This document shows, piece by piece, positions 1,934 to 20,614 of a stretch of DNA of 20,614 nucleotides; position 1 is the first letter of the stretch, and each line of letters begins with the position of its first letter. The notes beneath the pieces are model-generated. The model worked only from the letters and a program-made list of their open reading frames with translations, was not told the origin of the DNA and ran no database searches. The stretch comes from Candidatus Thorarchaeota archaeon SMTZ1-45 (GTDB lineage Archaea; Asgardarchaeota; Thorarchaeia; Thorarchaeales; Thorarchaeaceae), in the NCBI GenBank assembly GCA_001563335.1, contig LRSL01000046.1:1-20614 (forward strand), read 5' to 3'. The position numbers and the translations under genes are program-made.

Positions 1934-1981
1934 TGGTCAAAATATATGCGGGTTCATAATTATACATTGAGGGCATTTATC

Positions 1982-5252: not shown

Positions 5253-6419
5253 ATGGAACCAGTGAATGTCATTGGTGCTGGAATGACTTCGTTTGGTATT
5301 CTTGATGATTCGCTGATACAACTCGCTGAACAAGCCTCATTCAACGCAATGAGTGATTCACAGACTTTGGACCTATCTTTTGATCACCTTGTCATTGGCT
5401 CTCAAAATCCTGATGAGTTTGTCAATATAGGTCATTTATCAACACTCCTTGCTGACCGACTAGGAATGGTTCCCGCTGGAGCAACTCGCGTTGAAACTGG
5501 TCCATCATCTGGCTCTAGTGCATTCGAAGCAGCCTTCACGATGATTGCTTCTGGGCATTCCGACCTTGTTCTAGTGATTGGGGTAGAGAAGATGTCAGAG
5601 GTTGACCGTGGGATAGCTTCCAAAATTCTTGCCAAGATGATGTCCATTGAGAACGAAACTCGCTATGGAGCCACACCCTCTGCATTAGCTGCCATGGTTG
5701 CACGACGTTACATGCATGATTATAGACTTACACGCGATGAGTTATCATTGGTTCCTGTTAAAGCCCATAAGAATGGAGCTAAGAATCCCCTTGCCCACTT
5801 TCAAAAAGAAGTCACTTTAGAGAATGTCAATAATGCAAGGGTTGTTGCAGATCCACTTACCCTGTTCGATTGTTGTCCAACAAGCGATGGAGCTGCATCA
5901 GTCGTATTAGCCTCTGACAGAATGGTGAGCGACCTCGGACTATCGGACCAAGCTGTTCGAGTTCTAGGTGTTGGACATGGAACAGACTATCATGCAGTTC
6001 AACACAGACTATCTCTTACTTCATTCGGAGCGACAATCGCTGCTGCTGAGAGAGCGTTTTCCATGGCTAAGGTTGAAGCCAAAGACATTGATGTATGTGA
6101 ATTACATGACGCATTCTCCATTCTTGAGTTAATAAACATGGAAGACATTGGGATTACAGAACGTGGACATGCTATCGATTTGGTGAAAGACGGATCCACT
6201 GAGGTCGATGGACAGATTCCAGTCAATACAACTGGTGGTCTCAAAGCTAGAGGACATCCTACAGGAGGAACTGGCGTAGCACAGATTCATGATATATATT
6301 GTCAACTCATGCAGAAGGCGCCGAAAGACTTGCAGGTCAGCTCTCCAGTTTTCGGACTTACCCAGAACATTGGTGGATTTGGCAACAACATGGTGGTAGG
6401 ACTCTTTTCTGCTCCATAA
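5253..6419 (+). CDS. Archaeal/SCP2-type thiolase-fold protein with non-canonical active site
   Basis: VIGAGMTSFG, GVEKM, NPLAHFQKE, DCCPTSDGAA, ELHDAF, VNTTGGLKARGHPTGGTG and NIGG motifs; GAGGTAGG RBS upstream. The nucleophile loop reads VETGPSSG instead of the usual VExACASG. Confidence 0.9.
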   Translation: MEPVNVIGAGMTSFGILDDSLIQLAEQASFNAMSDSQTLDLSFDHLVIGSQNPDEFVNIGHLSTLLADRLGMVPAGATRVETGPSSGSSAFEAAFTMIASGHSDLVLVIGVEKMSEVDRGIASKILAKMMSIENETRYGATPSALAAMVARRYMHDYRLTRDELSLVPVKAHKNGAKNPLAHFQKEVTLENVNNARVVADPLTLFDCCPTSDGAASVVLASDRMVSDLGLSDQAVRVLGVGHGTDYHAVQHRLSLTSFGATIAAAERAFSMAKVEAKDIDVCELHDAFSILELINMEDIGITERGHAIDLVKDGSTEVDGQIPVNTTGGLKARGHPTGGTGVAQIHDIYCQLMQKAPKDLQVSSPVFGLTQNIGGFGNNMVVGLFSAP

Positions 6420-6674: not shown

Positions 6675-7841
6675 ATGCCCGAAGGTCTTGCTGTTTTGAA
6701 ATGGGATGATGAGCTTGGACCAGTAGTTACTTCAAAAACCCCTCAGAAATTGCAGATTGGCCTTGATCCTACAACATCAATGCGAGTCTATGGCATTGCT
6801 ACTCTTGGAGAAACTGAGGAGTCTCAGAAACCTGGTTTTAGTTCACTTGCTTTTAATGATTTCAAACTCGCTGTTTATTATGGCGGTCTTAACATGCATT
6901 TGAAAGGTCTACCATCAATGGTTTTCCTTGTACTCCAACCTGAGGAGGACTCAGATGTATACAAAGATGCATTACCAGAGATAGCCACTCAAATATTCCT
7001 CAATGCAGAAGATGACGAATACAAAGAGCTGGTACCTACGCTTTTCAAACAGATTACCAGATATACCCAAATGACGCCAGAACAAAGACAGGCATCGATT
7101 CTCAATGATCCTGTGAGAAGATCCATTGTCCAGACCCTGATGAAGAATGGAACTGTTTTGTCTACTGATCTTGAACAACTCATCTTTGAAGAAGTTGGAA
7201 AGAAGATAGATGTTGATATCATTCTGCGACCATTGGTAAAGATGGGATTAATCGCTACTGGGTGGGTAGAAGGCCTCTCTTCGGAGGTCATTTATCTGAC
7301 TCGAGCACTCTTTGTACTAAGGACCACCTCTCAAGATACAGTTCGAGCTGTCAGAAAGGGAAAGCTTCCAAAGGATGTCGCAGAACAATATCTTCAGACA
7401 TCAAGACGTTATCATAGAGATTATGTTGCTAGATTAAGGAAAGACCTCTTCGATACTATTTGGAAAGAAGCGGAAGAGCTTGCGAAGTGTATGTTAGACT
7501 TCGAAGCATATGACATAATCAGAGTTTTACGAGGTGGCCCACAAGAGAGTGAACATCTCCCTGTACTAGTTGAGCTTACTAAGGCTAAACTTAGGAAACA
7601 ACTCACCAGTTTGGAGAAGGCAAACATTGTAACGAGGATAAATGATGAAGATGGGCGTGAACATGTGATTCTTAAATGCAACCCTGAGGTTGTGACAGTC
7701 TATCCGGAATGGCTTATCCAAAGAACTGCTGACCTGTACAATGATGAAGAGATTGTGAGCAGGCAAGCAATGCATTATTTAGAGGTTCTAAAGAAGTCTC
7801 ATCCAAGTCAGGTTTCTAAAATGGCTGCGGAGGTGGTCTAA
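6675..7841 (+). CDS. Putative longin/uDENN-like N-terminal domain plus two winged-helix-like domains
   Basis: The N-terminus GLAVLKWDDELGPVVTSKTP fits the uDENN/NPR2-type (F/W)D/H-x-x-x-GP...P hairpin and is followed by a helix, three strands and helices in longin order. ILNDPVRRSIVQTL...ILRPLVKMGLI and AYDIIRVLRGGP...LRKQLTSLEKANIV look like winged-helix units. Confidence 0.6.
   Translation: MPEGLAVLKWDDELGPVVTSKTPQKLQIGLDPTTSMRVYGIATLGETEESQKPGFSSLAFNDFKLAVYYGGLNMHLKGLPSMVFLVLQPEEDSDVYKDALPEIATQIFLNAEDDEYKELVPTLFKQITRYTQMTPEQRQASILNDPVRRSIVQTLMKNGTVLSTDLEQLIFEEVGKKIDVDIILRPLVKMGLIATGWVEGLSSEVIYLTRALFVLRTTSQDTVRAVRKGKLPKDVAEQYLQTSRRYHRDYVARLRKDLFDTIWKEAEELAKCMLDFEAYDIIRVLRGGPQESEHLPVLVELTKAKLRKQLTSLEKANIVTRINDEDGREHVILKCNPEVVTVYPEWLIQRTADLYNDEEIVSRQAMHYLEVLKKSHPSQVSKMAAEVV
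7829..7836 (+). promoter_or_regulatory. Shine-Dalgarno site with stop-start junction (translational coupling)
   Basis: GGAGGTGG lies 5 nt before ATG 7842; the upstream gene's TAA (7839-7841) abuts the ATG. Confidence 0.75.
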
Positions 7842-10800
7842 ATGGGTGGCAATTACAGACTACTCCTCTTCATCAGTTTGCTGGCTCTATTCTTCTTACC
7901 ACTGACGAATACAGGACCTGTTTCAACACCAAATGCTGACTCATTTACATGCGAGGATAGTGCAATCGTTTCAGGATATCAAGATGAAGCGTTATGGTGG
8001 AACTCTTCCTTCATTTATCGTAGATACTTCAATTTCACAGAACCCAATGTAAGTGACAGATCTAATGTTCCAGTACATCTATTCCTGACATTCGAGAATG
8101 GACACTGTTATCGTGACTCAATCCGGATTCTCTTCTACGATACAATTGTATCAATACCTACAGAACAGCCATTTCAGGTCTGGAATGTTACATATTATTC
8201 AGGCACAGCATACATCAAATCTGCACGAATTTCAATAATCGTTGATGTTGCTAAGGATACAACGGAGGATGGTTACTATATCTATTATGCAAAACAAGAT
8301 GTCGGTTCAGTGAGTTATCCTAACTTCTATCCATTCATCTACACAAGTTACACATTCTCGCTGATTAACCTTGCTTCCTATTATGACACTAATAACTACT
8401 ATGTTGAGATGTATGATGACCCTTTGTATGGTGGAGACGGTACTTGGAAAGATCCCAACACCGTGAATGATGGAGTCGATATACGGTGGAAGAACTCGCA
8501 AGTAACTCCCGACAGTTCACCAACAGGGACCCTTAATAGATATGAAAATGTACGATATGAACCAACTTCAAGCTCCTACAGTGACTTCTTTGGATTTTAT
8601 CGAGTATACTCCAACTATCCAATGGCTGTTTCAATGGGTCAGGGAGATATGGGCTCTAACCCTGCACTCAATGATTGGTTCCCGGGTGTAAATGAGATGG
8701 GAAGTGGTCTTGGTACCAAGTTCATCCTCGGTGGAGTTGAGGGTTTTGAGAGTAGAAATGAGGGGAAATATTGGATTCAGGCGCATCAAGATAATACTGC
8801 AGTTTATGTGTGGACAGCTGGAGAAACTCTCGACTCAGGGTGGAGTTTCTATAATAACACAATTGTGTCAACCTGGCCTGCAATACTCAAAGCTGGTGAG
8901 TATATAGCTAAACGTGACGTTGTCTATACAACTTATGTCATTGCTAACTCCACAAAACCTGTTTCAATCCGTGCTGGTGACTCCGATGCAAGTTATGCTC
9001 GTGATATTGGAGGATTCTACCCTTCAACAACAGGCAAACTGGTTGGTGAAGAGTTCTATACCATAGATATGGGCAACTCAAATGATAGGACAAGAGTCAC
9101 CAATATTGGTACCACGCAGGTGACAGTTGAGTGGTGGAGAAGCACTGGCTCTGGTTGGGTTAAAGGAGCCAATCTCACAGATATTCCAGTGAATGGATCC
9201 GCAACAATACCTCGAGGAACTGCAAGTTCATCAGATCCCGAGGATATCCTGCGAATTAAGGGTCCTACAGGGTCAGAGCTTTTTGTTGAAGGAATCTATA
9301 ATGCCCCTAGTGTATCTGATCATGGTGATTGGAATCCTGCCATGACTGGCGACCGTTTTGGTCTTGATTATCGCATTTGGGGAGGTAGAGAACAGAAGAT
9401 TTTCATCATCGCTTGGGAGAACGCGAAGGTCGAAATCTCAAGCTATAGCGGGACTACAATACGTGAGATTGCACGTGGAAATACTGATTTCTATATGCCC
9501 GTTTCATCTAGTCAGTCTCTTCATGATTTACATTCAAACGCTACAATCAGTGTTGTTGTTGCTGGACGATTCTCAACTTCTGGTCCATATTATTACCCAA
9601 GTGGTGACCAAGGCTATGGTTGGATGGTCCCCGCATACTCATCTGAGAATGACCAAGCTGGAATTGATATAGTTTCAAGCGATGAAATCAAACTGTTCAG
9701 TCTTGACATAACAGTGACTGACCTTGACAATCAAGTAGTTGAGGGAGTCACCGTGACACTCTATAACACTGATGATACACTCTGGGTTGATGACAACTCA
9801 CTCAACCGTTCTGGACTAACTGGTGCGGATGGTCGAATACTGTTTGAAGGATTGAGTAATCAGACTTACAGAATCAAGTCATACGTCGATGCTGATGCTT
9901 GGCTTGCCAGTACTTATGACCATGTATGGGTAAGTAACTCCACTGACCAAGGTATTGAAGGATCTGTGACTCAAGTTACAATCAGATTGACCATAGCTGA
10001 CATTGACATCTACTTGACTGACTTAGATGGCAATCCCATGCTGGACACTGCTGATGAAACCACAAGAATGCGTCTTACCAATGGTACTAACCCACTTACA
10101 AATCATATAGCTCAAGGTCAAACAAACACAACAGGCTGGATTCACTTTGAAAGGATTCCAGCAGATGAGTATGATGTCTATGGATACTATGCTGGGTCCT
10201 TGGGCTGGTCTTATGGATATGCCCAAATGGATGACTTCGCAGTCTGGCATATTAGCTCCTCAGAATTTATTGGAAGATTCAGCCACAGTTGGCAAGTACC
10301 ACTTATCACCCTCGATATCCATGTTATATCATGGGACAATCTGGATGTTTCAGGTGCTACTATCACCATTGAGAATCCAGTCGACGCCAATCCAATCATA
10401 CGGAGTAGTGATGCAAATGGTGATTTCAGCTTCTATAGAGTAGCGAATGGAACATGGAATCTCGATGTCTGGAAAGATGATGACTATACTGGCACTCCGT
10501 TAGCACGTAACAATAGTGTATCATTGATAAATCAACAGACCAGCACTTCTAACACTGTTGAGTTACCCCTTACCCGGTTGATAATTAGGGTTCAATCTGG
10601 TGCAAGTCAAAATGTAGAAGGCGCTCAGGTGAATGTGAACCTTCTTGGTGTCGGACTTGTTGCTCAAGGTACAACCAACAGTACTGGACATGTGACCTTC
10701 TTCAACATTCATGCCAACATGACTGGTATTGTTGATTATAATGTCACTGCATTTTCAGGACTTGAGACCGCTTTCAAGATAGTCAAATGTGATAAGAGCT

Positions 10801-13800
10801 GGAACTATGTGAATCTGATATCCATTCAGCCACCTACGTGGGATCAACAATATTCTGAACTCAGTGCAGCAAACTACTTCAGGAATGTCCGATGGGGACA
10901 GACTATCAATCTCACGATAAGTTGGTTCAACAAGACTGGAAATCCAAGCAGTTACACAATTACTGCTATCCCCTATGATTCAACCTCTTGGTTGAATTTT
11001 ACAATTTACTATAACTCAATTCCAATCGGTTATGGTTATTGGACCTTAGCTTCCTTCGACGGTGTATTTCAAGAACCAAGCATCTACTTCAATGTTGAGA
11101 TCAACACATCTCTATGGATGATGAATGCATCAACGACCTCATACGAGATTGTCATACGAGCACATACATCCCTAATGTCTGATCCAACACCAATCATCAT
11201 CTATATAACCGTGCTACCAGCAACAACATCGCAGGGCATAGGAACTGGAGCAATCAATGAGTATTACGGGACACACAACGAGCATCTTTACTGGCTTTAT
11301 GATACTACAAACAGCTTGTATGTTGCTGGACTTGATGTATTCTCGTTTGTACTCAAACAGGGAACTGATGATTTGAAATCAGGATTGCTGACTGATAACG
11401 GTAATGGGACATATAGTTTACCAAATACTGCTCTCAGTGGGATTGGGATTGGTAGCTATGCTCTATATGTCACTCTACAGAAAGCAAACTATGTTAACCA
11501 GACCCTCTCTGTTGGTGTAACTATAACTAATCTTCCAATGGAAGTTGTCGTGGTTTCTGCTGATGATTATGTGTGGTCTACTTTGATAGCCTCCGAGTCA
11601 ATCGAGTTCCAATACGTGATAGCATGGAACTCAACTCCTAGTGAATTGAGTAATGTCCAAGTCACAATAGAGTGGTTGACCTATCCTGGCGCAATTTCCT
11701 ACCGGATCGTCAATCAGTTTCTGAGTTCCAGTATGGGTGTGTTCACATATACTTATGATGGGAATGTTGTACCGGTTGGAAACTGGACTGTGAGAATCAC
11801 ATGCAATCTGGTTAACTATGCAATAGCAACTGAATCCTTCGACAATATATATGTCAGCGAGGCACCAACAAATTTCATTGTTCCCCCAGCTGCAGAAACT
11901 GTTGATTGGACTGAGCCAGCAATTTTTGTAATTGAGTATACAAGGGTTAGTGATAGTACAGGTATTGCTGGTGCGTTGGTGTCTACTGATTGGATTGGGA
12001 CAGTAATTATCACATATCTTGGAAATGGTCAATACTCTGTAAGTTTTGATACAACAGTACCTGCAGATTCTTACACAGTCATAATCACTATCTCTGTAGC
12101 CAACCATGAAACAAAGGTAGATAGTGTTGACATCAATATTAATACGCCCGTGGCAATTGAAACCGAGTATGATTCGGAGGAAACTCCACTTACAGCATAT
12201 TGGACTCGAAGTTTTGATGTCGTGGTCAGATTAATGGACATGTCAAGAGATAACACAACCATTACAGGTGCCACCATACAATATGATTGGGTCGATTCAA
12301 TCAATCTCAACTTGGTGATTCCTGTAGGTTTCCTGACTGAACTCTCACCTGGAATATATGGAGTAACTCTACAGGGTGCTGATGCAGATCCCTTAATTGA
12401 TCTTTATTATATCACACTGACTGTTACAAGTCTCCCGTCACAACCCACATCTAGACTCTACCTTTTGATCCAAGATGTACCAAATGAAATCATTATTCCA
12501 GTGGGAGGGTTTGTTCCATACTATGGTGATATTGCTAGAGTTAGGTTCTATTGGAATAACACTCTAGATAATGATCCTATAACACTCCCAAGCTCTGCTC
12601 AATTTATAGTTGAGCCGATTGGTGTTGGTATTGGTGGATTGACCAATTATGGAAATGGTACGTATAGTTTCGACGTAGATACAAAAGCACTTGGAATGGA
12701 TGTTGACATCTATAGTGGGTTCTATCGTGTTCGTATATCGATGCAAGCCGATGGCTTTGAACCACTTGATGATGTATTTGTTTTCTTCCTTATGAGAGAA
12801 AGTCCAACATTTATGGAATTGGTGCATCCAGCAGAGGCTGAGTGGTCTAATGATCTGACAATCAGAGTCAATCTATGGGACTCGCGACACAATGAACTTG
12901 TCTGGGATGGAGCTTTTGTTGAAGTTGTCTATGGTGTATTTACAATTCAGCTTTATTCTCTTGGTAATGGAACCTTTGCAAGAACCTTTGACTCTTCCCT
13001 ATATTTTGCTGCTATAAATCCGGGTGATGATCCATATGAAGTACCAATCCAATACACGATACCAAACTATGTCAATGGTTTGATTGTCATTGATGTAATC
13101 GTGACTCCGATAATAGGTGAGCTAGAATTGAGCTTAACCTCTGATGTACCAACGGGAGCTTACAATGGCTCTTGGTCAGATTTTGTTAGAGTAGAATTTT
13201 CTGCAGTCTATTTGAGCGATGGAAGTCCTCTTCCTGAGGGAGTTGCAACTTATTATTGGGTGAACTACGAAACAATTGGAGGTACATTCACCTATGATTT
13301 ATTCAGATATTCTTTGAATATTGACACCTCTGAGGTTCCTGCAGGACTTAGGACACTAAGACTTATGGTCACTCTACAAAATCATTCTGTGATACCTTTC
13401 GATATTGAAATGAACCTTAGACCACTAGTTGCTACTTTTGAAACAGCAACGACTGAGCTTGAAGCAATATATGGATCAACAGAAAACATAGAAGTGTACT
13501 TTGATTTGACCTATTTAGGTTCGCCATTAATGGGCGCTGATGTCACACTCTATTGGAGCACCGAGGAATTTCCACATCGCATGTCGGGGACTAGATATGT
13601 TGTGTCATTCAGCGCTTCACAAGTATCAGGTCTCCAAGCACCTCAAGTCTATTTCCTAACTTTCGTAGCCGAACTTGAAAATTACACAGCACCTGCAATC
13701 GTGCTTGAGCTCAGTCTTCTAGCTCCTACAGCACTAAGTGTTAATACGGTCACTGTTGAGATGGGTCAGTCTATTACTGTCTACTTCAAGTACTATAACA

Positions 13801-14933
13801 CTCTTACTGGTGCTGCAATCACAGCGTCTGAGATTTTAGCCACTCTACCCGATGGTGGTCCTCTGCTTGTAAATGTATACAACTCAAGTCATTATTCTGT
13901 AGTAATTACAGCAGCTGATGTGGGAGAGATTTCTATTGATTACTATGAGATTCATTTTGTAATCTCAGCTGAAGGTTATCAGAGTTATACCGGTGAAAAT
14001 CCATACTCAATGAGAGTATATGTCGCTGAACCAACCTATGATTTTGGTCCTCTTGGAAGATATCCCCGAACGATGGTCAATACAATGCTATTGATGACCT
14101 TACTCTTCACAGTATTTGCTGGTTCAGTGGTTGGAGTAAGACGCATGCGTATTCCATATCAAATCAAGCAGATAGACAAAGCATTGAATCAGATAGGGAA
14201 GGGTAAGACTGCTAAAGTTGAGAAAATCAAGACTATGGGTATGGTAGTTTCGGAACTCCTCGCACCTGGTCTCTCAGAGCTTGACATCGCAGTTCCAGTC
14301 ATTGAGGCAGGACCAGAAGATGCTGGAATAACTATCCTCGATGAGTACACAGATGAGCTCCTTGGTGAGCTTGATGCACTTGATGACCTTGAAATTGAGG
14401 ATGAAGTACTCGAAGAGGACAACTTTGAAGCTGAACTAGAAGCTGAGCTTGATTCTATTGAAGCTATTGAATCTGAAGAAGTACCTGTGGCTGCAGATAT
14501 AGACACCGAAGAACTCACAGACTTTGAACCTGAAGTGAAGGAAGTTGTAGATGAGTCTGGTAAGGATATAACTGAACCAAAACCTGAATCAGAGGTTACT
14601 GAAGAAGTGGTTGAGGAACCTGATGATGAAGAATTGACACCTGAGATTGAGCTCGAGGAAACGGAGCTAGAAGACATTGAAAAGCCAGAACCTCGTGAAT
14701 CTAAATTCACAGATATTGAGGGTGAGGAAATCTCAACTATTGATGCTCTTGAAGTAAAAGAAGACGTAGAATCTGAAGATGATGCACGAAAAGTACGTAT
14801 GAGTAAGAAAGAGATGATTGACCTTTTGTCTTCCGAAATTAAGGAGCGTTATCCTGACAAAGAACTCAGGAAACTTAGCAAAGCCGAGCTTCAAGAGCTA
14901 CTCGACTATATGGATGAAGCTAGTGAGGAATAG
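7842..14933 (+). CDS. Giant (2363 aa) single-pass cell-surface glycoprotein: DUF2341-like and IgGFc-binding-like N-terminal region, prealbumin/CnaB-like and Ig-like repeats, TM helix, 264-aa cytoplasmic tail
   Basis: Signal peptide (LLLFISLLALFFLPL); WWNSSFIYRR...NVPV...YYIYY DUF2341-like start; many N-x-S/T sequons; beta-sandwich repeats; TM at about residues 2078-2099 (nt 14073-14138) followed by RRMR; D/E-rich tail. Confidence 0.85.
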   Translation: MGGNYRLLLFISLLALFFLPLTNTGPVSTPNADSFTCEDSAIVSGYQDEALWWNSSFIYRRYFNFTEPNVSDRSNVPVHLFLTFENGHCYRDSIRILFYDTIVSIPTEQPFQVWNVTYYSGTAYIKSARISIIVDVAKDTTEDGYYIYYAKQDVGSVSYPNFYPFIYTSYTFSLINLASYYDTNNYYVEMYDDPLYGGDGTWKDPNTVNDGVDIRWKNSQVTPDSSPTGTLNRYENVRYEPTSSSYSDFFGFYRVYSNYPMAVSMGQGDMGSNPALNDWFPGVNEMGSGLGTKFILGGVEGFESRNEGKYWIQAHQDNTAVYVWTAGETLDSGWSFYNNTIVSTWPAILKAGEYIAKRDVVYTTYVIANSTKPVSIRAGDSDASYARDIGGFYPSTTGKLVGEEFYTIDMGNSNDRTRVTNIGTTQVTVEWWRSTGSGWVKGANLTDIPVNGSATIPRGTASSSDPEDILRIKGPTGSELFVEGIYNAPSVSDHGDWNPAMTGDRFGLDYRIWGGREQKIFIIAWENAKVEISSYSGTTIREIARGNTDFYMPVSSSQSLHDLHSNATISVVVAGRFSTSGPYYYPSGDQGYGWMVPAYSSENDQAGIDIVSSDEIKLFSLDITVTDLDNQVVEGVTVTLYNTDDTLWVDDNSLNRSGLTGADGRILFEGLSNQTYRIKSYVDADAWLASTYDHVWVSNSTDQGIEGSVTQVTIRLTIADIDIYLTDLDGNPMLDTADETTRMRLTNGTNPLTNHIAQGQTNTTGWIHFERIPADEYDVYGYYAGSLGWSYGYAQMDDFAVWHISSSEFIGRFSHSWQVPLITLDIHVISWDNLDVSGATITIENPVDANPIIRSSDANGDFSFYRVANGTWNLDVWKDDDYTGTPLARNNSVSLINQQTSTSNTVELPLTRLIIRVQSGASQNVEGAQVNVNLLGVGLVAQGTTNSTGHVTFFNIHANMTGIVDYNVTAFSGLETAFKIVKCDKSWNYVNLISIQPPTWDQQYSELSAANYFRNVRWGQTINLTISWFNKTGNPSSYTITAIPYDSTSWLNFTIYYNSIPIGYGYWTLASFDGVFQEPSIYFNVEINTSLWMMNASTTSYEIVIRAHTSLMSDPTPIIIYITVLPATTSQGIGTGAINEYYGTHNEHLYWLYDTTNSLYVAGLDVFSFVLKQGTDDLKSGLLTDNGNGTYSLPNTALSGIGIGSYALYVTLQKANYVNQTLSVGVTITNLPMEVVVVSADDYVWSTLIASESIEFQYVIAWNSTPSELSNVQVTIEWLTYPGAISYRIVNQFLSSSMGVFTYTYDGNVVPVGNWTVRITCNLVNYAIATESFDNIYVSEAPTNFIVPPAAETVDWTEPAIFVIEYTRVSDSTGIAGALVSTDWIGTVIITYLGNGQYSVSFDTTVPADSYTVIITISVANHETKVDSVDININTPVAIETEYDSEETPLTAYWTRSFDVVVRLMDMSRDNTTITGATIQYDWVDSINLNLVIPVGFLTELSPGIYGVTLQGADADPLIDLYYITLTVTSLPSQPTSRLYLLIQDVPNEIIIPVGGFVPYYGDIARVRFYWNNTLDNDPITLPSSAQFIVEPIGVGIGGLTNYGNGTYSFDVDTKALGMDVDIYSGFYRVRISMQADGFEPLDDVFVFFLMRESPTFMELVHPAEAEWSNDLTIRVNLWDSRHNELVWDGAFVEVVYGVFTIQLYSLGNGTFARTFDSSLYFAAINPGDDPYEVPIQYTIPNYVNGLIVIDVIVTPIIGELELSLTSDVPTGAYNGSWSDFVRVEFSAVYLSDGSPLPEGVATYYWVNYETIGGTFTYDLFRYSLNIDTSEVPAGLRTLRLMVTLQNHSVIPFDIEMNLRPLVATFETATTELEAIYGSTENIEVYFDLTYLGSPLMGADVTLYWSTEEFPHRMSGTRYVVSFSASQVSGLQAPQVYFLTFVAELENYTAPAIVLELSLLAPTALSVNTVTVEMGQSITVYFKYYNTLTGAAITASEILATLPDGGPLLVNVYNSSHYSVVITAADVGEISIDYYEIHFVISAEGYQSYTGENPYSMRVYVAEPTYDFGPLGRYPRTMVNTMLLMTLLFTVFAGSVVGVRRMRIPYQIKQIDKALNQIGKGKTAKVEKIKTMGMVVSELLAPGLSELDIAVPVIEAGPEDAGITILDEYTDELLGELDALDDLEIEDEVLEEDNFEAELEAELDSIEAIESEEVPVAADIDTEELTDFEPEVKEVVDESGKDITEPKPESEVTEEVVEEPDDEELTPEIELEETELEDIEKPEPRESKFTDIEGEEISTIDALEVKEDVESEDDARKVRMSKKEMIDLLSSEIKERYPDKELRKLSKAELQELLDYMDEASEE
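9700..10710 (+). repeat. Four degenerate prealbumin-like/carboxypeptidase-regulatory-like protein repeats within the giant protein
   Basis: LDITVTDLDNQVVEGVTV..TGADGRILF; IDIYLTDLDGNPM..TNTTGWIHF; LDIHVISWDNLDVSGATI..SDANGDFSF; LIIRVQSGASQNVEGAQV..TNSTGHVTF. Boundaries are approximate. Confidence 0.65.
11390..13000 (+). repeat. Degenerate Ig-like stalk repeats with GNG-T/Q-Y/F turn motif
   Basis: DNGNGTYSL, YLGNGQYSVSFDT, ELSPGIYGV, NYGNGTYSFDVDT and SLGNGTFARTFDS recur at roughly 100-aa (or 200-aa) spacing. Boundaries are approximate. Confidence 0.6.
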
Positions 14934-14953
14934 AATACTATGTCAAAACCAAC

Positions 14954-14993
14954 GGGAACAGCACGGGTGTTCCCTGAGTTTACTTCAACTCAG
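14954..14993 (+). other. Two back-to-back stem-loops in the intergenic region between the giant protein and the GTPase
   Basis: GGGAACA (14954-14960)/TGTTCCC (14968-14974) and CTGAGTT (14974-14980)/AACTCAG (14987-14993), both perfect 7-bp inverted repeats sharing base 14974. Confidence 0.55.
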
Positions 14994-15036
14994 TATAGGA
15001 ATGCAAATGATACCATAACAACGGGATCGTGAAATC

Positions 15037-15921
15037 ATGATTCGAGAGATACACATCTTCAAAGATGGTCAAACTCTTTTTCAAGATGTCATAGTCCCTA
15101 ACAAAGATCTCGATACATCTGCAGTGATGATGTTGGTTTCATCTTCTGCAAAGAAGCTCCAAGAATGGAAAATTGATAGCATGGAGATCGAGCGCTACCG
15201 ATATGTCTACATGAACTCTCATGGCACACAGTTTATCTTAACAATGGACCGTCAAGCATCCCTTCAGAAAGTGACTGAGGCTATGATGGACCTTGTGTCG
15301 AAGTTCATGACAGTCTTTGAAAACGCCTTGGAAACCAACGAATGGAAATCTACCGATTTTTCACCCTTTGGTGTTGGATTCAGAAAAATAGTAGCTAAGA
15401 TACCTGTGAAGATGTGTCTTGCTGGACATGGTGGTACGGGAAAGACAACTCTCCTGGAGTTGGCAACTCTTCCATCACGTGGTCCACCACAAGAGTACAT
15501 ACCTACTTTCTTTGGTGATAAGGCACTTCTGAAAGCTGATTTTGATCCCTATATCTTCAGTATGTTCGACTTGGGTGGTCAAGATCGATTTGTACAGGAA
15601 TGGGGCAAGATTATCCGTTCTGGTAGCCTTGTCGTAATTGTTACTGATTCTACTAAAGATAATCTTTCTTGGACAAAACGTGTAGCTTATCCGGTCTTAA
15701 GAGCTGAACTACCCTATGCAAGGGCTATATCTATAGCAAACAAGCAAGATCTCAAAGGTGCTTTGTCTCCAGATGAAGTAGGAAAGAAACTGGGTGTACC
15801 GGCATATGGTATGCAAGCAAATCAACGAAACTTCAGAGACCGTTGGTTGAAACTGCTGAGGGCTTTAGCATTTGAAGAGATTGACTTTACCATCGTTGGT
15901 GAGATTGTGGAGGTGGATTAA
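15037..15921 (+). CDS. Longin-like domain fused to an Arf-related small GTPase
   Basis: G1 GHGGTGKTT (nt 15424), G2 YIPT, G3 FDLGGQDRF..W (nt 15568) and G4 ANKQDL (nt 15739) followed by the Arf-like KGALSPDEV. The N-terminal ~120 aa (MIREIHIFKDGQTLF...YRYVY...TQFILTMD...AMMDLVSKFMTVF) has the longin/AP-sigma pattern. Confidence 0.88.
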   Translation: MIREIHIFKDGQTLFQDVIVPNKDLDTSAVMMLVSSSAKKLQEWKIDSMEIERYRYVYMNSHGTQFILTMDRQASLQKVTEAMMDLVSKFMTVFENALETNEWKSTDFSPFGVGFRKIVAKIPVKMCLAGHGGTGKTTLLELATLPSRGPPQEYIPTFFGDKALLKADFDPYIFSMFDLGGQDRFVQEWGKIIRSGSLVVIVTDSTKDNLSWTKRVAYPVLRAELPYARAISIANKQDLKGALSPDEVGKKLGVPAYGMQANQRNFRDRWLKLLRALAFEEIDFTIVGEIVEVD

Positions 15922-15922
15922 G

Positions 15923-16489
15923 TTGTCAGATCCTAGTGATATCACAAAGAGTGTTGTCAATGAAGAGGAACGCAAGCGTTTGATTAGTGAGATTGGACAC
16001 ATAAAAGAAATTCTTGATAGCTTCAAATATGGCTTGAACTTTGAAGATTTTGCTGACGAGTTATTCAAAACAGTTGATAGGCAGACGCTAGCAATCAAGA
16101 AGCTTGATGAGAATCTTGCAGATATTGTTGAACGTATGGACCGTCTTGAGAAGCAATTCAATGAAGGAATCAAGGTTTCAGTATCTGGCGCAATCAGATC
16201 CGATTCTGGTCAAACCGAGAGCGAGGTTCTTCTTGATGACCTTTCGACTAAGAAAGAACTACCTTCTGAAGACCTCGTCGCGGATAAATCCCGGGCGGAA
16301 CTTGAGAGGGAAGTTGAAGAACTTAAGATTAAGATAGCACGTCTTTTTGAGAAGGAAAACGAGCTTGAAGAGATGGCAATGAATGATCCTGCTGGTGCTG
16401 AAGAGTATGAGGAAAAGGCGGGCACCGCTCGAGAGATGCGAAAGGGTCTTGAAGAACAACTGGAAGAGCTTGAAATGAGATTAGAGTGA
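15923..16489 (+). CDS. Acidic coiled-coil protein (188 aa) with a C-terminal helical hairpin
   Basis: Probable TTG start at 15923 with GGAGGTGG at 15909-15916, 1 nt after the GTPase stop; the track's 15872 start is an overlapping extension. Heptad-rich segments IKKLDENLADIVERMDRLEKQF and LEREVEELKIKIARL...LEEQLEEL. Confidence 0.75.
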   Translation: MSDPSDITKSVVNEEERKRLISEIGHIKEILDSFKYGLNFEDFADELFKTVDRQTLAIKKLDENLADIVERMDRLEKQFNEGIKVSVSGAIRSDSGQTESEVLLDDLSTKKELPSEDLVADKSRAELEREVEELKIKIARLFEKENELEEMAMNDPAGAEEYEEKAGTAREMRKGLEEQLEELEMRLE

Positions 16490-16501
16490 AGGTGAGAAAA
16501 T

Positions 16502-16858
16502 ATGGGATTGTTTGACAGCTGGAGACGAAAGAAAAAGCGTGCACCAACCACTGACACTAGGTTCCGTGAAAGACCGCAAGTTAAATCTGGAATGCAGACA
16601 GATGTGGATGTCACTGAAGCCGAACCAGAAACAGTATCATCACTTCTTGAAAAATATGATGAATTGGTACAGCGACGTGAGGCTCTATCGTTTGAACGAG
16701 AGAATCTCACTCGAAAACTTGAAGATGGAGAAATCGAAGCCACAGAGTTCAGAAAAGAACTGATGGCTAGAATTCAAGAAGCTGCACAAGTTTCTGAGAA
16801 TCTAAGATCAACTACAGCTAGATTAGCTCAACTTGGATATCGTGGTGCCTTACATTAA
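16502..16858 (+). CDS. Small protein with N-terminal amphipathic/polybasic segment and a helical hairpin (steadiness-box/SHOCT-like turn)
   Basis: AAGGTGA RBS upstream; MGLFDSWRRKKKR start; helix-LEDGEIEATEF-helix hairpin. Confidence 0.75.
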   Translation: MGLFDSWRRKKKRAPTTDTRFRERPQVKSGMQTDVDVTEAEPETVSSLLEKYDELVQRREALSFERENLTRKLEDGEIEATEFRKELMARIQEAAQVSENLRSTTARLAQLGYRGALH

Positions 16859-16869
16859 GGTGAGGAATC

Positions 16870-18288
16870 ATGTCGGATCGTGAAGACCATCAGCTGGGAG
16901 GCACTCCCGATTCACCCGACATGGAGAAAGAAACAAAACGATTAATGGATGAAGCTATTGCTAAGGAGTTTGCCACCTCGGACACTGATGAAACGACAAC
17001 AGCTCAGATTGATGTGACATTCCAAAGACTTCAAACAAGAATGGAGGACCTTCTTTCAACTATAGAGGATACGCTAAAAGCAGTCGGTCCTGATTTGGAT
17101 GTCAAGACCGTACAAATAGTTGAATCACTAAATAAAAAACTAGCAAATGCAGGTTTAGGAGTGTTCGCAACGCGAGCTGCAAAGATTGTCAAGGACGAAC
17201 TTGAATCCGAACTCTCTGTGGACGATGTGTTCAAACCCGTCCATGAAGTCATTGAGAAGAGTCGTGCTAAAATTGTAGACATTATTGAAAAGACAACAAA
17301 AGGTGCAGCTCGTAATGTGGAACAATCAACTGGTAGTTTACAAGCCAAGCTTTTACAAATGTACGTCAAGCTTGGAGAGGTGGATAAGCAGCTTGAAATT
17401 ACTCGTAGTGAAGTACGCAAATGGCGTGGAAAAGCCAACGAGTTGGAAGAACTGATGAAGCAAAGGGAAAATCTGATGACACAATCAAGTGAAGAGATAT
17501 TCCGTATGCATGAAAGTATCAAGGAACTTAATATACAACTACAAGAAAAGGATGACACTATCTCTGAATTGAAAGGTGAATTGGGTCAGGCAAGAGCTCA
17601 AGCGGAACAACAACAGGATCTATTGAAGGCCCTTAATTCTGCAGAACAAGTAGCAGCTAATTATGAAGCTAAAGTGTTAGAATTGTCGCAAATACAGGGT
17701 CAGCTTGTACAGGCAACTGAACAATTAGGTCAAAAAGATGATGAACTATCAGCTCTTCGAACAGAATTGGAACGAATTACTCAAGAGAAGATGTCTGCTG
17801 ACTCTCAGATTAGTGAGATGTCTGAAAAACTTGCTTTGCTAATGGGTTCTGAGAGGGACTATCAGGCTGAAGTTGATGGAATGAATACACGTGTGGCTGA
17901 ATTGCAAGCTCGATGGGATGCACTTTATCGGATAGCTGAAGATGATCCAACATTCAAGGCGTATTTCCTCATTGCTGATAAAACACAATGGTTCCAGCTA
18001 TCGCATCTCTCATCTGCGCTAGGTATTCCAACAGTACTCCTTAAACGAAATCTCCAGAAATTCGTTGATGTAGGCCTCTTGGAGATTAATGGTGATAGAA
18101 TCCGCCCTCGAAGTTTCTCAAATTTGATTAAAGATATGAAATCATCTGACGAAGAACTGATCAGGAGTGCTCAGACTGAATCTGATGAGAAAGAAACTGA
18201 ATCAATTGAATCTAAGGATTCACTCATATCTACTCCTGAATATACCCGCCCAGAGAAGGGCGATGATTATGAACAGGATGGAAGATAG
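16870..18288 (+). CDS. Long coiled-coil protein with a C-terminal winged-helix-like domain and acidic tail
   Basis: AAGGTGAGG RBS; about 200 residues of continuous heptads (approx. nt 17335-17940); DDPTFKAYFLIA...LSHLSSALGIPTVLLKRNLQKFVDVGLLEINGDRI winged-helix pattern; no Walker A motif. Confidence 0.8.
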   Translation: MSDREDHQLGGTPDSPDMEKETKRLMDEAIAKEFATSDTDETTTAQIDVTFQRLQTRMEDLLSTIEDTLKAVGPDLDVKTVQIVESLNKKLANAGLGVFATRAAKIVKDELESELSVDDVFKPVHEVIEKSRAKIVDIIEKTTKGAARNVEQSTGSLQAKLLQMYVKLGEVDKQLEITRSEVRKWRGKANELEELMKQRENLMTQSSEEIFRMHESIKELNIQLQEKDDTISELKGELGQARAQAEQQQDLLKALNSAEQVAANYEAKVLELSQIQGQLVQATEQLGQKDDELSALRTELERITQEKMSADSQISEMSEKLALLMGSERDYQAEVDGMNTRVAELQARWDALYRIAEDDPTFKAYFLIADKTQWFQLSHLSSALGIPTVLLKRNLQKFVDVGLLEINGDRIRPRSFSNLIKDMKSSDEELIRSAQTESDEKETESIESKDSLISTPEYTRPEKGDDYEQDGR

Positions 18289-18631
18289 TTTGGTTAAGAC
18301 ATTGGATGAAGTTATGCACTTCCTTGAGAACTATACAATTGCCTGGCATCATTGGTTGTTGATCCTTTCACTATTAAAGTTGGGTGGGAGCGGTACAAAA
18401 GCACAGATACTCCCTGTTTACAAACGAGAGGGATTTTCACCACATGCTATTGATAAGGTCTTCCAGATGGATTTGGAAGATTTGGGGGCAGCTATTGAAG
18501 TTGAAGGAGGCATCAAAAACTTAGACGAGCATTCAACTATCTACCTTACGGAAGATCCTAATTTTAGGAAGTTTTTGAAAAAAAACCTCAGAGATGTCGT
18601 CAGAAAATTCAAGACGCAAACGAGAGATTGA
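18278..18631 (+). CDS. Small hypothetical protein (117 aa), winged-helix-like
   Basis: Probable ATG at 18278 overlaps the end of the upstream gene by 11 nt; LILSLLKLGGSGTKAQILPVY...VFQMDLEDLGAAIEVEG...TIYLT fits a helix-turn-helix plus wing. Confidence 0.65.
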   Translation: MEDSLVKTLDEVMHFLENYTIAWHHWLLILSLLKLGGSGTKAQILPVYKREGFSPHAIDKVFQMDLEDLGAAIEVEGGIKNLDEHSTIYLTEDPNFRKFLKKNLRDVVRKFKTQTRD

Positions 18632-18697: not shown

Positions 18698-18859
18698 ACG
18701 AATGAAAATGTTCGATATCGGACATATCAAGCTGCCTTAAGAATATCAGTGTAGGAACATACGATCTTGTCTCAGGTCCTGGCAAGAGAGTAGGGTGTTA
18801 TTCTAAACACACATCGTGGGTGTTTGCGAGCGGCTATATAATCATTGGACGGTCCCACA

Positions 18860-20614
18860 ATGAAGAGGAATTTGATTATCCCAGTTGTAATATTCATAGT
18901 CCTTAGTTTTTGCACACTTTGTACAACTATTGATTCTAATGAGTTGGAAATATTATCTATTAACCAGCAAATCTTCACAGTGTCTGGAGTTGGTGATGAC
19001 ATTGAAGACTATGTGGACCAACTCTCGAATATGCATACTCCTACAGACAAAGGTACACATTCTTCCTTCGTTAATCTACAATCATTCGACGCAGCGATGG
19101 ATACTCTTACTGAGTTGGATGTTGGTGATCCTACTATCAACGAATATCTCTATGTTGATGGTTTTTCTGGTACACATCAATGGGGTTTGACAGGAACTTC
19201 TCCATATTTAGATGCGGTGGATGGATCAAGTTACATATCAACAAACACTGACGGTTTTATAGATGAATGGTACACCTTCACTGATACTACGGGTAACTCT
19301 GGAGCTTTTTCTGTAAATGCGAGTGTCTACTTTATCTCAACAGATGGCAATGATGACTATTATTGGGAGATTGATTGGACAGATGATGGCGTTGCTGATG
19401 CCAGTGGTACAGTCGCGAATCCCGGTTCTGCTGCATGGAGTGATTTGGGTGTAATCTCAGGATTAGACACACCAGCAGAAGTTAATGCCGCTCGGTTGTC
19501 AATTCAATACTCAGCTCAAGGAGGTGCTGGTATAATGTCTGTTGATGCCGCCCGGCTTGGTGTTTATCATCTTGGTACTGGAAATGACTTTGAACTTGAC
19601 CTAGAAGTTGGATGGACCGCAGCTGACTTCGATGAGCTTAACGAGTATCTTTGTATCTATGCTGGGACTCAGGATTCAGAAGCTTTGATGGTCGATGTAT
19701 GGAATGGGGCATCTTGGGCCAATGTCATTGCTGATCTTGTTGCTAATCAGTGGAATAATGTTAGTGTCAGTTCATATCTCACAAGCTCATCTTTCGAGAT
19801 TCGATTTATTGATGCAAATCAAGCAAATGAGGGAACACTAGACACTTGGAATGTCGATGCAGTCTTACTTCATACTTGGACTCCCAGCTATATACCTGCA
19901 AATGATCAAGCACCTACTTTGGACAATCCAAGTGACACAGATAACATGTATGCCCAATATCTTGAGTATGAGGTTACAGTGTATGTGTCTGATCAGAATG
20001 GTTTTGCTGATATTGACTACTTGGAGATTGGATTGTGGGACGACACCCAGACCACAGAGTATTGTAGATTCAGGTACGATGAGGATACGAATGCTTTCAC
20101 AGAGGAATATGATGCTGGAACCTATGTGACTCTAAACACAGGAAGTTCCACTGCAACAGAGAGCGGCAATGATATCGATGCGACGTTCTATATTACTGTA
20201 GACTGGGACTTTCCTGACTCAACTGATTTGGATGCCAGATGCTATGTTATTGATACACAAACCGAGTCTGCAACTACATGGTATGAGGTCAATTGGGATG
20301 TTGAAACCAGACTTGATTTTTCAGTAGCTCCGAGCATTGATGATGGTTCAGGGACCGTAGACAGAGGTGACCTTGATGGGTCTTTCTCATTGACTGGTAC
20401 AATAATTTACTATACCTCCACAGATGACTATCCCTCCTCCACAGCAGTTGATGTTTGGGTGGCTGCCTCCGAGTACGGTACTACTGCAGGTCCGTGGAGC
20501 GATCTGACTCTTACTTCAGGTGCTTTTGATGTTACATGCTATGCTGATGATGTCGTTGGACAAGATACTTACACAATAAAGGTAGTTGAAGAAGGCGCAG
20601 GAGCAGGAGGAACT
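18860..20614 (+). CDS. Secreted/surface acidic beta-rich protein, 3'-truncated by the window edge (at least 585 aa; absent from the ORF track)
   Basis: Manual translation from ATG 18860 gives MKRNLIIPVVIFIVLSFCTLCTT (signal peptide)...EDYVDQLSNMHTPTDKGTHSSF...FELDLEVGWTAADFDELNEYLCIY...EALMVDVWNGASW...NQWNNVSVSSYLTSSSFEIRFID...YEVTVYVSDQNGFADIDYLEI...TYTIKVVEEGAGAGGT, with no stop seen before the window end. Confidence 0.85.
   Translation, partial: MKRNLIIPVVIFIVLSFCTLCTTIDSNELEILSINQQIFTVSGVGDDIEDYVDQLSNMHTPTDKGTHSSFVNLQSFDAAMDTLTELDVGDPTINEYLYVDGFSGTHQWGLTGTSPYLDAVDGSSYISTNTDGFIDEWYTFTDTTGNSGAFSVNASVYFISTDGNDDYYWEIDWTDDGVADASGTVANPGSAAWSDLGVISGLDTPAEVNAARLSIQYSAQGGAGIMSVDAARLGVYHLGTGNDFELDLEVGWTAADFDELNEYLCIYAGTQDSEALMVDVWNGASWANVIADLVANQWNNVSVSSYLTSSSFEIRFIDANQANEGTLDTWNVDAVLLHTWTPSYIPANDQAPTLDNPSDTDNMYAQYLEYEVTVYVSDQNGFADIDYLEIGLWDDTQTTEYCRFRYDEDTNAFTEEYDAGTYVTLNTGSSTATESGNDIDATFYITVDWDFPDSTDLDARCYVIDTQTESATTWYEVNWDVETRLDFSVAPSIDDGSGTVDRGDLDGSFSLTGTIIYYTSTDDYPSSTAVDVWVAASEYGTTAGPWSDLTLTSGAFDVTCYADDVVGQDTYTIKVVEEGAGAGGT

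Follow-up and report, generated by a model that had tools for sequence, protein, structure and literature searches.

We analyzed a cluster of seven genes, named here g1 to g7, located at positions 6675 to 18631 of a 20,614-nucleotide (nt) stretch of DNA from Candidatus Thorarchaeota archaeon SMTZ1-45. This stretch, referred to as the window, is contig LRSL01000046.1 (contig C46), from a genome of 3.5 Mb that is 88% complete. We lean, with some reserve, towards reading the cluster as a membrane-proximal small-GTPase switch of the longin-regulator type to which, in this lineage, a giant surface receptor is coupled. The link between the receptor and the GTPase module is well supported by three independent kinds of observations, namely gene fusion, adjacency in another class and repeated joint loss. 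The cluster is two-layered, with a core composed of g1, g3, g5 and g7 and an accessory trio composed of g2, g4 and g6. As had been described previously from the sequence, the seven genes are co-oriented, and the gaps between them, from g1 to g7, are 0, 103, 1, 12, 11 and -11 nt. The genes and their parts are listed below (positions in the window; aa, amino acids; ORF, open reading frame).

6675-7841, + strand: g1, ORF of 388 aa; cytoplasmic protein, predicted longin domain (residues 1-132), winged helix 1 (about 135-217), helical linker, winged helix 2 (about 276-342) and C-terminal helices
7842-14933, + strand: g2, ORF of 2363 aa
14082-14138, + strand: transmembrane helix of g2, residues 2081-2099 (hydropathy maximum)
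14139-14411, + strand: conserved cytoplasmic juxtamembrane segment of g2, residues 2100-2190, RRMRIPYQIKQI...GLSELDI (alignment)
14412-14933, + strand: acidic low-complexity tail of g2 (88 D+E versus 24 K+R in 251 residues)
15037-15921, + strand: g3, ORF of 294 aa
15037-15405, + strand: N-terminal longin domain of g3, residues 1-123 (predicted model, structural matches)
15406-15921, + strand: Arf-like GTPase domain of g3, residues 124-281 (Pfam Arf, PDB profile search)
15923-16489, + strand: g4, ORF of 188 aa with a TTG start; coiled-coil protein in which the helices at both termini are conserved and the linker is acidic (accessory set)
16502-16858, + strand: g5, ORF of 118 aa; N-terminus MGLFDxWRRKK, variable linker and conserved C-terminal helical hairpin
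16870-18288, + strand: g6, ORF of 472 aa; long coiled-coil protein, C-terminal part (about 356-443) possibly a winged helix (accessory set)
18278-18631, + strand: g7, ORF of 117 aa, start at ATG 18278 or TTG 18290; conserved small protein (113-117 aa) with WHHWL...GGSGTK...EGFS (ortholog alignment)

Conservation and loss of the cluster genes in Thorarchaeota

With a 10-row alignment, a single genome of each species was scanned for the pattern. This gave 56 loci, 45 of which contain Thorarchaeota orthologs of g1 (at least 67% identity). These 45 loci comprise a long form, in which g2 directly follows g1 (26 loci), a short form, in which g3 directly follows g1 (13 loci), and six other loci that end inside or just after g1 or are odd (L056, L064, L065, L067, L078 and L080). 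Sixteen of the long-form loci reach g3, and ten end at contig ends. The preliminary description had set beforehand, as its refuting test, that gene order would not be conserved in related genomes; the order is kept in the 16 complete and the 10 cut long-form loci, in other species of Thorarchaeota. All 16 loci that reach g3 contain g4, and 15 contain g5 and g6, the sixteenth ending in g4. In most long loci the retrieved flank stops short of g7, and the gene was found in every long locus that reaches that far (the window, L013, L015, L016 and L052). The short loci contain g3, g5 and g7 in 13 of 13 cases, g4 in none and g6 in a single case (L027).

A tree was constructed from concatenated g1 and g3 of 15 long loci and the window, 13 short loci and four outgroups; L063 was left out owing to its truncated g1. 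The long forms are found on basal branches. The short label requires four changes on this tree, at least three of them forced by branches with at least 95% support, and none of 500 label shuffles gave a number as low. Therefore, g2, g4 and g6 were lost together repeatedly, at least three times, and the four-gene core persists without them; it is present without the receptor in 13 Thorarchaeota species. The idea of a single, self-contained seven-gene machine can be retained insofar as a functional unit joins the giant surface protein to the longin/GTPase module, but this unit is not indivisible, since the core stands without the accessory trio.

Three loci have unusual arrangements around g1. 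In L065 (6562-7544), a truncated g1 is directly followed by a g6-like fragment, and in L043 and L080 a g2-like gene is located upstream of g1. Additionally, in L020, from a genome of the same order and another family (G025), a 510-aa g1-like gene (13420-14952) lies between g6 and g7 and none precedes g3; the gene order of this locus is therefore permuted.

Linkage of the g1 module to giant surface proteins

An exhaustive search of representatives recovered 485 members of the g1 family at E ≤ 1e-3. Seven of these are proteins of 1330-2548 aa that carry the g1 module at the C-terminus; in all but P0022 a transmembrane helix is located about 100 residues before the module, and four have an N-terminal hydrophobic segment. 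Two such fusions of a giant protein with g1 are in tandem in one Loki-type region.

Five Loki-type regions chosen for their tandem matches to the g1 profile contain arrays of two to three cassettes. In each cassette a g1 homolog comes directly after the gene for a giant single-pass protein, and the stop and start codons overlap; in two of these regions a g3-like longin-GTPase is encoded on the opposite strand. A less selected sample consisted of 20 Loki-type loci from the top of the hit list, one or two per genome and from two families only. A single-pass protein of 731-1870 aa is encoded directly upstream of the g1 homolog in 19 of the 19 loci that could be evaluated, the twentieth ending at the contig end, and the spacing between the two genes is 0-4 nt.

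The split and the fused Loki-type giants have a common segment after the transmembrane helix, ARIPxFVKK...K.IK......GLSLxDILG, and a post-transmembrane motif RIPxxIKQ is common to g2 and the Loki-type giants. When a hidden Markov model of the g2 juxtamembrane segment was compared with the Loki-type giants (59 sequences), one match of 23 residues was obtained (E 0.0035). The arrangement in the window corresponds to the split form with g1 placed before g2: signal-like start, large ectodomain, one transmembrane helix, post-transmembrane segment and a g1 module encoded next to it.

Two further observations were made on members of this family and their surroundings. A gene for a form-III-like RuBisCO large subunit (L086:11402-12724; Pfam RuBisCO_large, E 1.7e-48) adjoins a giant-g1 cassette, and in many more of the sampled Loki-type loci the same position is taken by ORFs of comparable length (438-456 aa), probably as plain synteny. 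P0059 is a fusion protein of 1020 aa that joins a g1-type module to a SIR2-like domain (Pfam SIR2_2, E 1.2e-11) and to TPR repeats (TPR_12, E 2.5e-26), a mixture of domains reminiscent of defence or NAD-consuming effectors.

The core beyond Thorarchaeota and its paralogs

Homologs of g1 and g3 (28-33% identity) are adjacent in ten of ten loci of the Frey-, Jord- and Baldrarchaeota types. The third gene of the Frey- and Jord-type loci encodes a protein of 106-120 aa that starts with MG(L/I)xD/E, and the Jord-type protein matches the g5 profile with an hhalign probability of 94% (E 1e-7). The g1-g3-g5 trio is an old core, adjacent in Thor-, Frey- and Jord-type genomes, with only g1-g3 in Baldrarchaeota. 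At E ≤ 1e-10, matches to the g1 profile were obtained in 311 of the 400 genomes of the phylum; one family has five or more matches in each of its 135 genomes, whereas several families are nearly devoid of them (1 of 31, 0 of 12 and 1 of 22 genomes).

In the genome of the window all three g1 paralogs, on contigs C46, C118 and C75, are followed by a longin-GTPase gene. After the third paralog (C75:37869-41377, - strand) this gene encodes a 602-aa protein, in which an N-terminal longin-GTPase is extended on its C-terminal side by about 325 aa. Most other genomes of the genus have ORFs of comparable length with the same G-domain match. The suggestion that a g4-like gene follows every g1-g3 pair was rejected, as g4 showed no similarity to the coiled-coil gene after the paralogous pair on C118 (hhalign probability of 0.1%).

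Domains of g1

The AlphaFold model of g1, based on a 79-row alignment, has a predicted local distance difference test score (pLDDT) of 92.8 and a predicted template modelling score (pTM) of 0.85. On this model, g1 is predicted to consist of an NPRL2/NPRL3-like longin domain and two winged helices. The longin topology is predicted as beta-beta-alpha-beta-beta-beta-alpha-alpha, and what follows it in the model is a set of winged helices and helical linkers, with no DENN domain. Five Foldseek matches were obtained at E ≤ 1e-3, and all of them are NPRL2/NPRL3 chains or chains of the yeast SEAC (Npr2/3), with E-values from 1.4e-4 to 8.8e-4; the next matches were an Asgard roadblock-longin protein, Fuzzy-Inturned and FLCN-FNIP2. 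With NPRL2-length chains, 287-298 columns were aligned (E 1.4e-4 to 2.4e-4) and the TM-score was only 0.27-0.29. A second aligner, VIA, superposed residues 1-132 on the NPRL2 chain 8fw5_B with Z 11.8 and a root-mean-square deviation (rmsd) of 2.8 over 122 residues, and on the SEA complex chain 8adl_S with Z 11.0. The same aligner matched residues of about 255-342 to ArsR/SmtB-type repressors (Z about 9). At E ≤ 0.1, the only Pfam matches of g1 were HTH_20 and TBC1D23_C, both under the cut-off.

The N-terminal part of g1 contains the motif W10-D11-D-E-L-G15-P16 (W10-D11-x3-G15-P16), which is present in the window and in all seven Thorarchaeota rows of the alignment. Among the 79 members of the family, W is found in 68, D in 62 and G in 74. 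According to PMC12290439, C9orf72 has W33-D34 and G38-P39, residues needed for Arf GTPase-activating protein (GAP) activity, and the GP motif of GAP longins of this type is located where beta-2 begins. The W-D-x3-G-P spacing of g1 equals the one given there.

The longin-GTPase g3

The second longin-like protein is g3, in which the domain is fused to an intact Arf-like GTPase; the predicted longin domains of g1 and of the g3 N-terminus agree in this with the preliminary description. The model of the g3 longin domain has a pLDDT of 79, and VIA superposed residues 1-123 on the longin domains of VAMP7 (Z 15.6; 116 residues with an rmsd of 2.2) and Sec22 (Z 13.9). The closest structures are longins of SNARE, adaptor and TRAPP proteins (VAMP7, Sec22, synbindin and AP-3 sigma). 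Invariant or nearly invariant positions of this domain are M1-I2-R3 and R53/R55: all 35 sequences have R3, and 34 of them have R55; on the strength of this conservation, R3 and R55 are candidates worth testing, and are proposed only as such.

The GTPase domain matches Pfam Arf (E 2.7e-11, 43.7 bits versus a cut-off of 22.3), and Arf1 in the PDB profile search (E 1.7e-22). The motifs G1 to G5 are intact (G1 GHGGTGKT, T157, DLGGQ, NKQD and A261), and GxxGxGKT, T157, DxxGQ, NKQD and A261 are invariant in 35 g3 sequences. No match of g3 to Gtr1_RagA was obtained in Pfam at E ≤ 0.1, and the extra domain is an N-terminal longin, not a C-terminal roadblock. A Loki-type homolog of g3 does match Gtr1_RagA (E 2.3e-7), more weakly than Arf (E 1.8e-21). 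An Arf-type N-terminal amphipathic helix is not present in g3, the N-terminus of which is the 123-residue longin domain. With these features g3 fits the Asgard class of longin-GTPases, in which a longin is fused to a Rag/Arf-like G domain. A prediction of the g1+g3 complex gave a score of 0.14 versus a mark of 0.32, which counts neither for nor against binding.

The giant surface protein g2

As had been noted before, g2 is a transmembrane protein with a large ectodomain and a cytoplasmic tail. It is of type I and putatively glycosylated, with an N-terminal hydrophobic signal-like segment, 36 N-X-S/T sequons, a prealbumin/CarboxypepD_reg-like domain at residues 623-695 and a single transmembrane helix, which is followed by an acidic cytoplasmic tail of 264 residues. 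The ectodomain is variable, and the best-conserved part of the protein is the cytoplasmic juxtamembrane segment: identity to 14 orthologs is 0.56 in residues 2101-2200 versus 0.25-0.50 elsewhere. Residues 2100-2190 are a candidate docking site. Moreover, about 9 of 15 orthologs have a C-terminal helix motif in common, MIDLL..EIKERYP..LRKLSK.ELQELL. The g2 orthologs are 2160-2470 aa long in 12 of 14 complete long-form loci. In two long-form loci g2 is not intact or much shorter (longest ORF of 1275 aa in L032 and of 693 aa in L052), and these two cases may be decay stages or assembly errors.

The small and coiled-coil partners g4 to g7

The membrane-binding type of N-terminus ascribed previously to g5 was substantiated, as its basic-amphipathic start, MGLFDxWRRKK, is invariant in an alignment of 23 sequences. 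This makes g5 a candidate for the membrane anchor of the core. A PDB profile search with g5 returned coiled-coil noise only, with no homology to LAMTOR1. Similarly, the two coiled-coil proteins were recognized as such, since for g4 and g6 Pfam gives only weak matches of the coiled-coil type. The C-terminus of g6 resembles winged helices of the MarR/TrmB type in an Atlas model, which is to be taken as a lead only. For g7, the PDB profile search gave nothing below E 0.025 and all Atlas matches were under 0.9. Consequently, of the winged-helix proteins that had been proposed, g1 is well supported, the g6 C-terminus is kept as a lead, and g7 was not borne out.

Gene spacing, translation signals and neighbouring genes

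The following additional features were located in the window.

7829-7836, + strand: GGAGGTGG ribosome-binding motif, inside the end of g1, 5 nt 5' of the g2 start
14954-14974, strand not assigned: G+C-rich inverted repeat of 7 bp (GGGAACA...TGTTCCC), in the 103-nt g2-g3 gap
15909-15916, + strand: GGAGGTGG ribosome-binding motif, 6 nt 5' of the g4 TTG start

The repeated Shine-Dalgarno sites reported earlier are in place, with GGAGGTGG twice, before g2 and g4, and AAGGTGA before g5 and g6; the over-representation applies to the first motif and not to the second. Only two copies of GGAGGTGG occur in the 20.6-kb window, versus a shuffle expectation of 0.31, and at least two copies were seen in 2 of 100 shuffles. 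AAGGTGA has four copies versus a shuffle mean of 3.7, which is not above chance, and two of the four are located 6 nt 5' of the g5 and g6 starts. All of the 22 g7 orthologs start at a TTG or ATG equivalent to position 18290 of the window; therefore, the overlap of g7 with g6 may not be real, and on this comparison of sequences g7 may start 1 nt after the g6 stop. The two genes are tightly coupled with either start. The g2-g3 gap, 103 nt here, ranges from 6 to 344 nt among orthologs. A bacterial-type promoter and terminator scan found eight terminator-like sites versus 7.2 expected, which is at chance level, a scan of this type being uninformative for an archaeon. Three serine-rich antisense ORFs of 173-177 aa (14189-14710, 16210-16743 and 17031-17558, all on the - strand) are not genes, because they are coding shadows of acidic and coiled-coil coding regions of the + strand.

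In relatives (e.g. L013:14220-15787), the cluster is placed between a thiolase gene (5253-6419 in the window) and genes for a DUF35-type protein (ChsH2 OB-fold/zinc-ribbon) and an acyl-CoA dehydrogenase, and it therefore looks like an insertion in a lipid-metabolism neighbourhood. In the window, the downstream DUF35/acyl-CoA dehydrogenase pair is replaced by a gene for a surface protein. This gene (18845-20614, + strand) encodes a signal-bearing surface-type protein that is over 590 aa long and has no match in Pfam. The carboxylase and thiolase genes of the flank were considered as members of the module and rejected, their adjacency being plain synteny. Further upstream, a surface-type protein of the NosD/right-handed beta-helix kind, with a C-terminal transmembrane helix and RKRRK, is encoded at 224-1933 (+ strand), and a 237-aa protein that ends in a PARP-type zinc finger at 1946-2659 (+ strand; Pfam zf-PARP, E 1e-13, above the cut-off). 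The PARP-type zinc finger is a DNA-nick-sensing domain, best known from eukaryotic PARP and DNA ligase III.

Proposed mechanism and alternative explanations

We propose that the longin domains of g1 and g3 would pair, as in NPRL2-NPRL3 or C9orf72-SMCR8, and that the pair would form a platform setting the nucleotide state of the g3 G domain. The g5 protein might hold the complex at the membrane, in a manner analogous to LAMTOR1 for Ragulator-Rag, and residues 2100-2190 of g2 might dock g1, the coiled-coil proteins or both. Events at the ectodomain, such as contact with a partner cell or a surface, would in this way be coupled to the switch, with g4 and g6 as a putative scaffold or effector. The functional link between the genes is supported by the data; binding among the products, GAP versus guanine nucleotide exchange factor (GEF) activity and the direction of signalling are what we infer.

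Several points weigh against the receptor-coupled switch. The Foldseek E-values of g1 are modest (1e-4) and the TM-score is 0.28, which is low because the domains superpose singly and their arrangement differs. At E ≤ 0.1 g1 matches neither the Pfam NPR2/NPR3 models nor any other longin model. Only 19 of the 79 g1 family members have the P of the GP motif. The longin domain of Thorarchaeota g1 orthologs contains no conserved arginine, so that an arginine finger of the NPRL2/FLCN/SMCR8 type is not evident in g1; in residues 1-132 of the family no arginine column reaches 50%, and position 13 is R in 33 of 79 members and E in the window. A g3-like GTPase is located within about 9 kb in only 2 of the 20 sampled Loki-type loci, and therefore the pairing of g1 with a receptor and that of g1 with a GTPase are not always found together. 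The g2 segment that begins with RRMRIPYQIKQI matches the tails of the Loki-type giants and fusions with an hhalign probability of 69% (E 4.6e-5, 50 columns), which is no more than suggestive. A second promoter in the g2-g3 gap is possible, given its 103 nt and the up to 344 nt in orthologs. Finally, the cluster is dispensable and absent from about half of the genomes of the family; 46 of its 86 genomes have one match to the g5 profile, as do 14 of the 23 genomes of high quality.

A less probable explanation, which nevertheless deserves weight, is control in the opposite direction, the GTPase core setting where and when g2 is placed, clustered or delivered, so that g2 would be a cargo or output and not a sensor. 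Variants of it are the assembly of polarity or adhesion sites in the manner of MglA-MglB, or Arf/Sar1-like cargo sorting with longin-type adaptor subunits. The genomic evidence that joins g2 to the core is common to this explanation and to outside-in signalling, and the similarity of the g3 longin to SNARE, adaptor and TRAPP longins, the Arf-like G domain and the inheritance of the coiled-coil proteins together with the giant all fit it. On the other hand, the core occurs without the giant in the 13 short-form Thorarchaeota species and in the Frey- and Jord-type loci, where another output would be needed, and the cluster contains no coat, SNARE or motor gene.

Quite improbable, in our opinion, is a role in gene regulation, in which the winged helices of g1, possibly those of g6 and perhaps g7, would bind DNA and a membrane-linked relay of GTPase and receptor would control the release of the regulator. 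The superposition of winged helix 2 of g1 on ArsR/SmtB-type repressors points in this direction, as do weak matches of the g1 profile to archaeal helix-turn-helix regulators (E 1.4e-4) and the MarR/TrmB-type lead for the g6 C-terminus. However, NPRL2/NPRL3 and ESCRT-II also have a layout with two winged helices, which serves there for contacts between proteins; the fused module is tethered about 100 residues from the membrane, a poor fit to DNA binding unless the tail is cleaved; and g7 had no match in the PDB profile search or the Atlas that would assign it a fold. Chance insertion of the giant and coiled-coil genes into a GTPase operon, with no functional link, is disfavoured and highly improbable: in relatives the cluster separates the thiolase gene from the DUF35-type gene that is its usual partner, so that the site tolerates insertions, and the g2-g3 gap varies in the range given above, but fusions of giants with g1, the 19 of 19 adjacencies in Loki-type loci, the joint losses of g2, g4 and g6 and the cytoplasmic location of the most conserved part of g2 argue against it.

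Relation to known systems

The GATOR1/SEACIT complexes (NPRL2-NPRL3-DEPDC5 and Npr2-Npr3-Iml1, GAPs for RagA/Gtr1) are similar to the cluster in that g1 has a longin followed by winged-helix domains and a small GTPase is encoded next to it. In contrast to these complexes, g1 has neither sequence-level membership of the family nor the conserved longin arginine, no DEPDC5-like gene is present in the cluster (the rest of the genome was not searched), g3 is Arf-like with an N-terminal longin instead of a C-terminal roadblock, and the site of action is presumably the plasma membrane near a surface receptor and not the lysosome. C9orf72-SMCR8-WDR41 (an Arf GAP) and FLCN-FNIP (a RagC/D GAP) contain heterodimers whose two longins make up the catalytic pocket for a GTPase of the Arf or Rag type. 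The W-D-x3-G-P motif of g1, at the reported spacing, resembles C9orf72, whereas the place of the DENN domains of these proteins is taken in g1 by winged helices, and the GAP role of g1 is putative.

By analogy with LAMTOR1 of Ragulator-Rag, g5 is short and mostly helical, has a putative N-terminal membrane-binding signal and could hold a longin/roadblock-GTPase complex on the membrane; no LAMTOR1 homology was detected, and the comparison is one of analogy only. In the SRP receptor (signal recognition particle receptor; the longin-like SRX of SR-alpha with the Arf-like SR-beta), a longin-type domain is likewise combined with an Arf-like GTPase at the membrane, and SR-beta chains match the g3 G domain (Z 12.4-12.8). 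However, g3 carries both domains in one chain and has no SRP54-type NG domain, and the context is unrelated. The MglA-MglB system of Myxococcus combines a small GTPase with a regulator of the roadblock/longin fold, and is linked to surface adhesion machinery and coiled-coil proteins; it differs in that the GTPase is of another family and the regulator is a roadblock homodimer. We know of no giant single-pass receptor fused or adjacent to MglA-MglB.

The cluster had been described as novel, which is true of the gene set, on which no paper was found, and not of all its components. Asgard "NPRL2-like longin" proteins are reported by Liu et al. (2021, bioRxiv 10.1101/2020.10.19.343400), and Asgard longin-GTPase architectures by Tran et al. 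(2024, PMC10933270); the accessible portions of both deal with the proteins, and not with the g1-g3 pairing, g5 as a partner, a giant receptor or the coiled-coil set. PMC10933270 states that in MK-D1 genes for GTPases do not, in general, share operons with those for roadblock or longin proteins, and that the lack of operons makes it difficult to match regulators with GTPases. Asgard longins of the FLCN/SMCR8 type with a GP motif are described in PMC12290439, which asks what GTPases they serve. Our literature search found no publication on the operon or on longin-tailed surface proteins, although supplements of papers on the component families may list such neighbourhoods. What is added here is the organization of the cluster in two layers, the antiquity of the g1-g3-g5 trio, the finding that the accessory genes were jointly lost more than once, the 19 of 19 Loki-type adjacencies, the common post-transmembrane motif and the C9orf72-like motif in g1.

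Implications

Asgard genomes encode dozens of small GTPases and longin/roadblock proteins, and the matching of regulators with GTPases is an open problem. The cluster offers a concrete conserved pairing of an NPRL2-like protein, a longin-Arf-like GTPase and an anchor-like protein, which is tied genetically to a surface receptor. For assays it comes down to a few soluble proteins and a single tail peptide, all of which can be expressed. Moreover, as homologous pairs are present in the sampled Loki-type genomes, a cultured Lokiarchaeon may carry a homolog, which would open the way to localisation and proteomics.

A broader proposal, which we consider unlikely and put forward as a speculation, is that Asgard archaea have a widespread, modular receptor-coupled GTPase system that would be the prokaryotic forerunner of the GATOR1, FLCN-FNIP and C9orf72-SMCR8 longin GAP complexes, later moved to the lysosome. 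In such a system, variable giants fused to, or encoded beside, an NPRL2/C9orf72-like module would control a longin-fused Arf/Rag-like GTPase at the plasma membrane. If this were true, the Rag/Arf nutrient and membrane signalling of eukaryotes would descend from an archaeal device for cell-surface sensing. If the link between the receptor and the switch holds, it bears on the origin of the eukaryotic longin GAP complexes and on the way in which Asgard archaea sense partners and surfaces.

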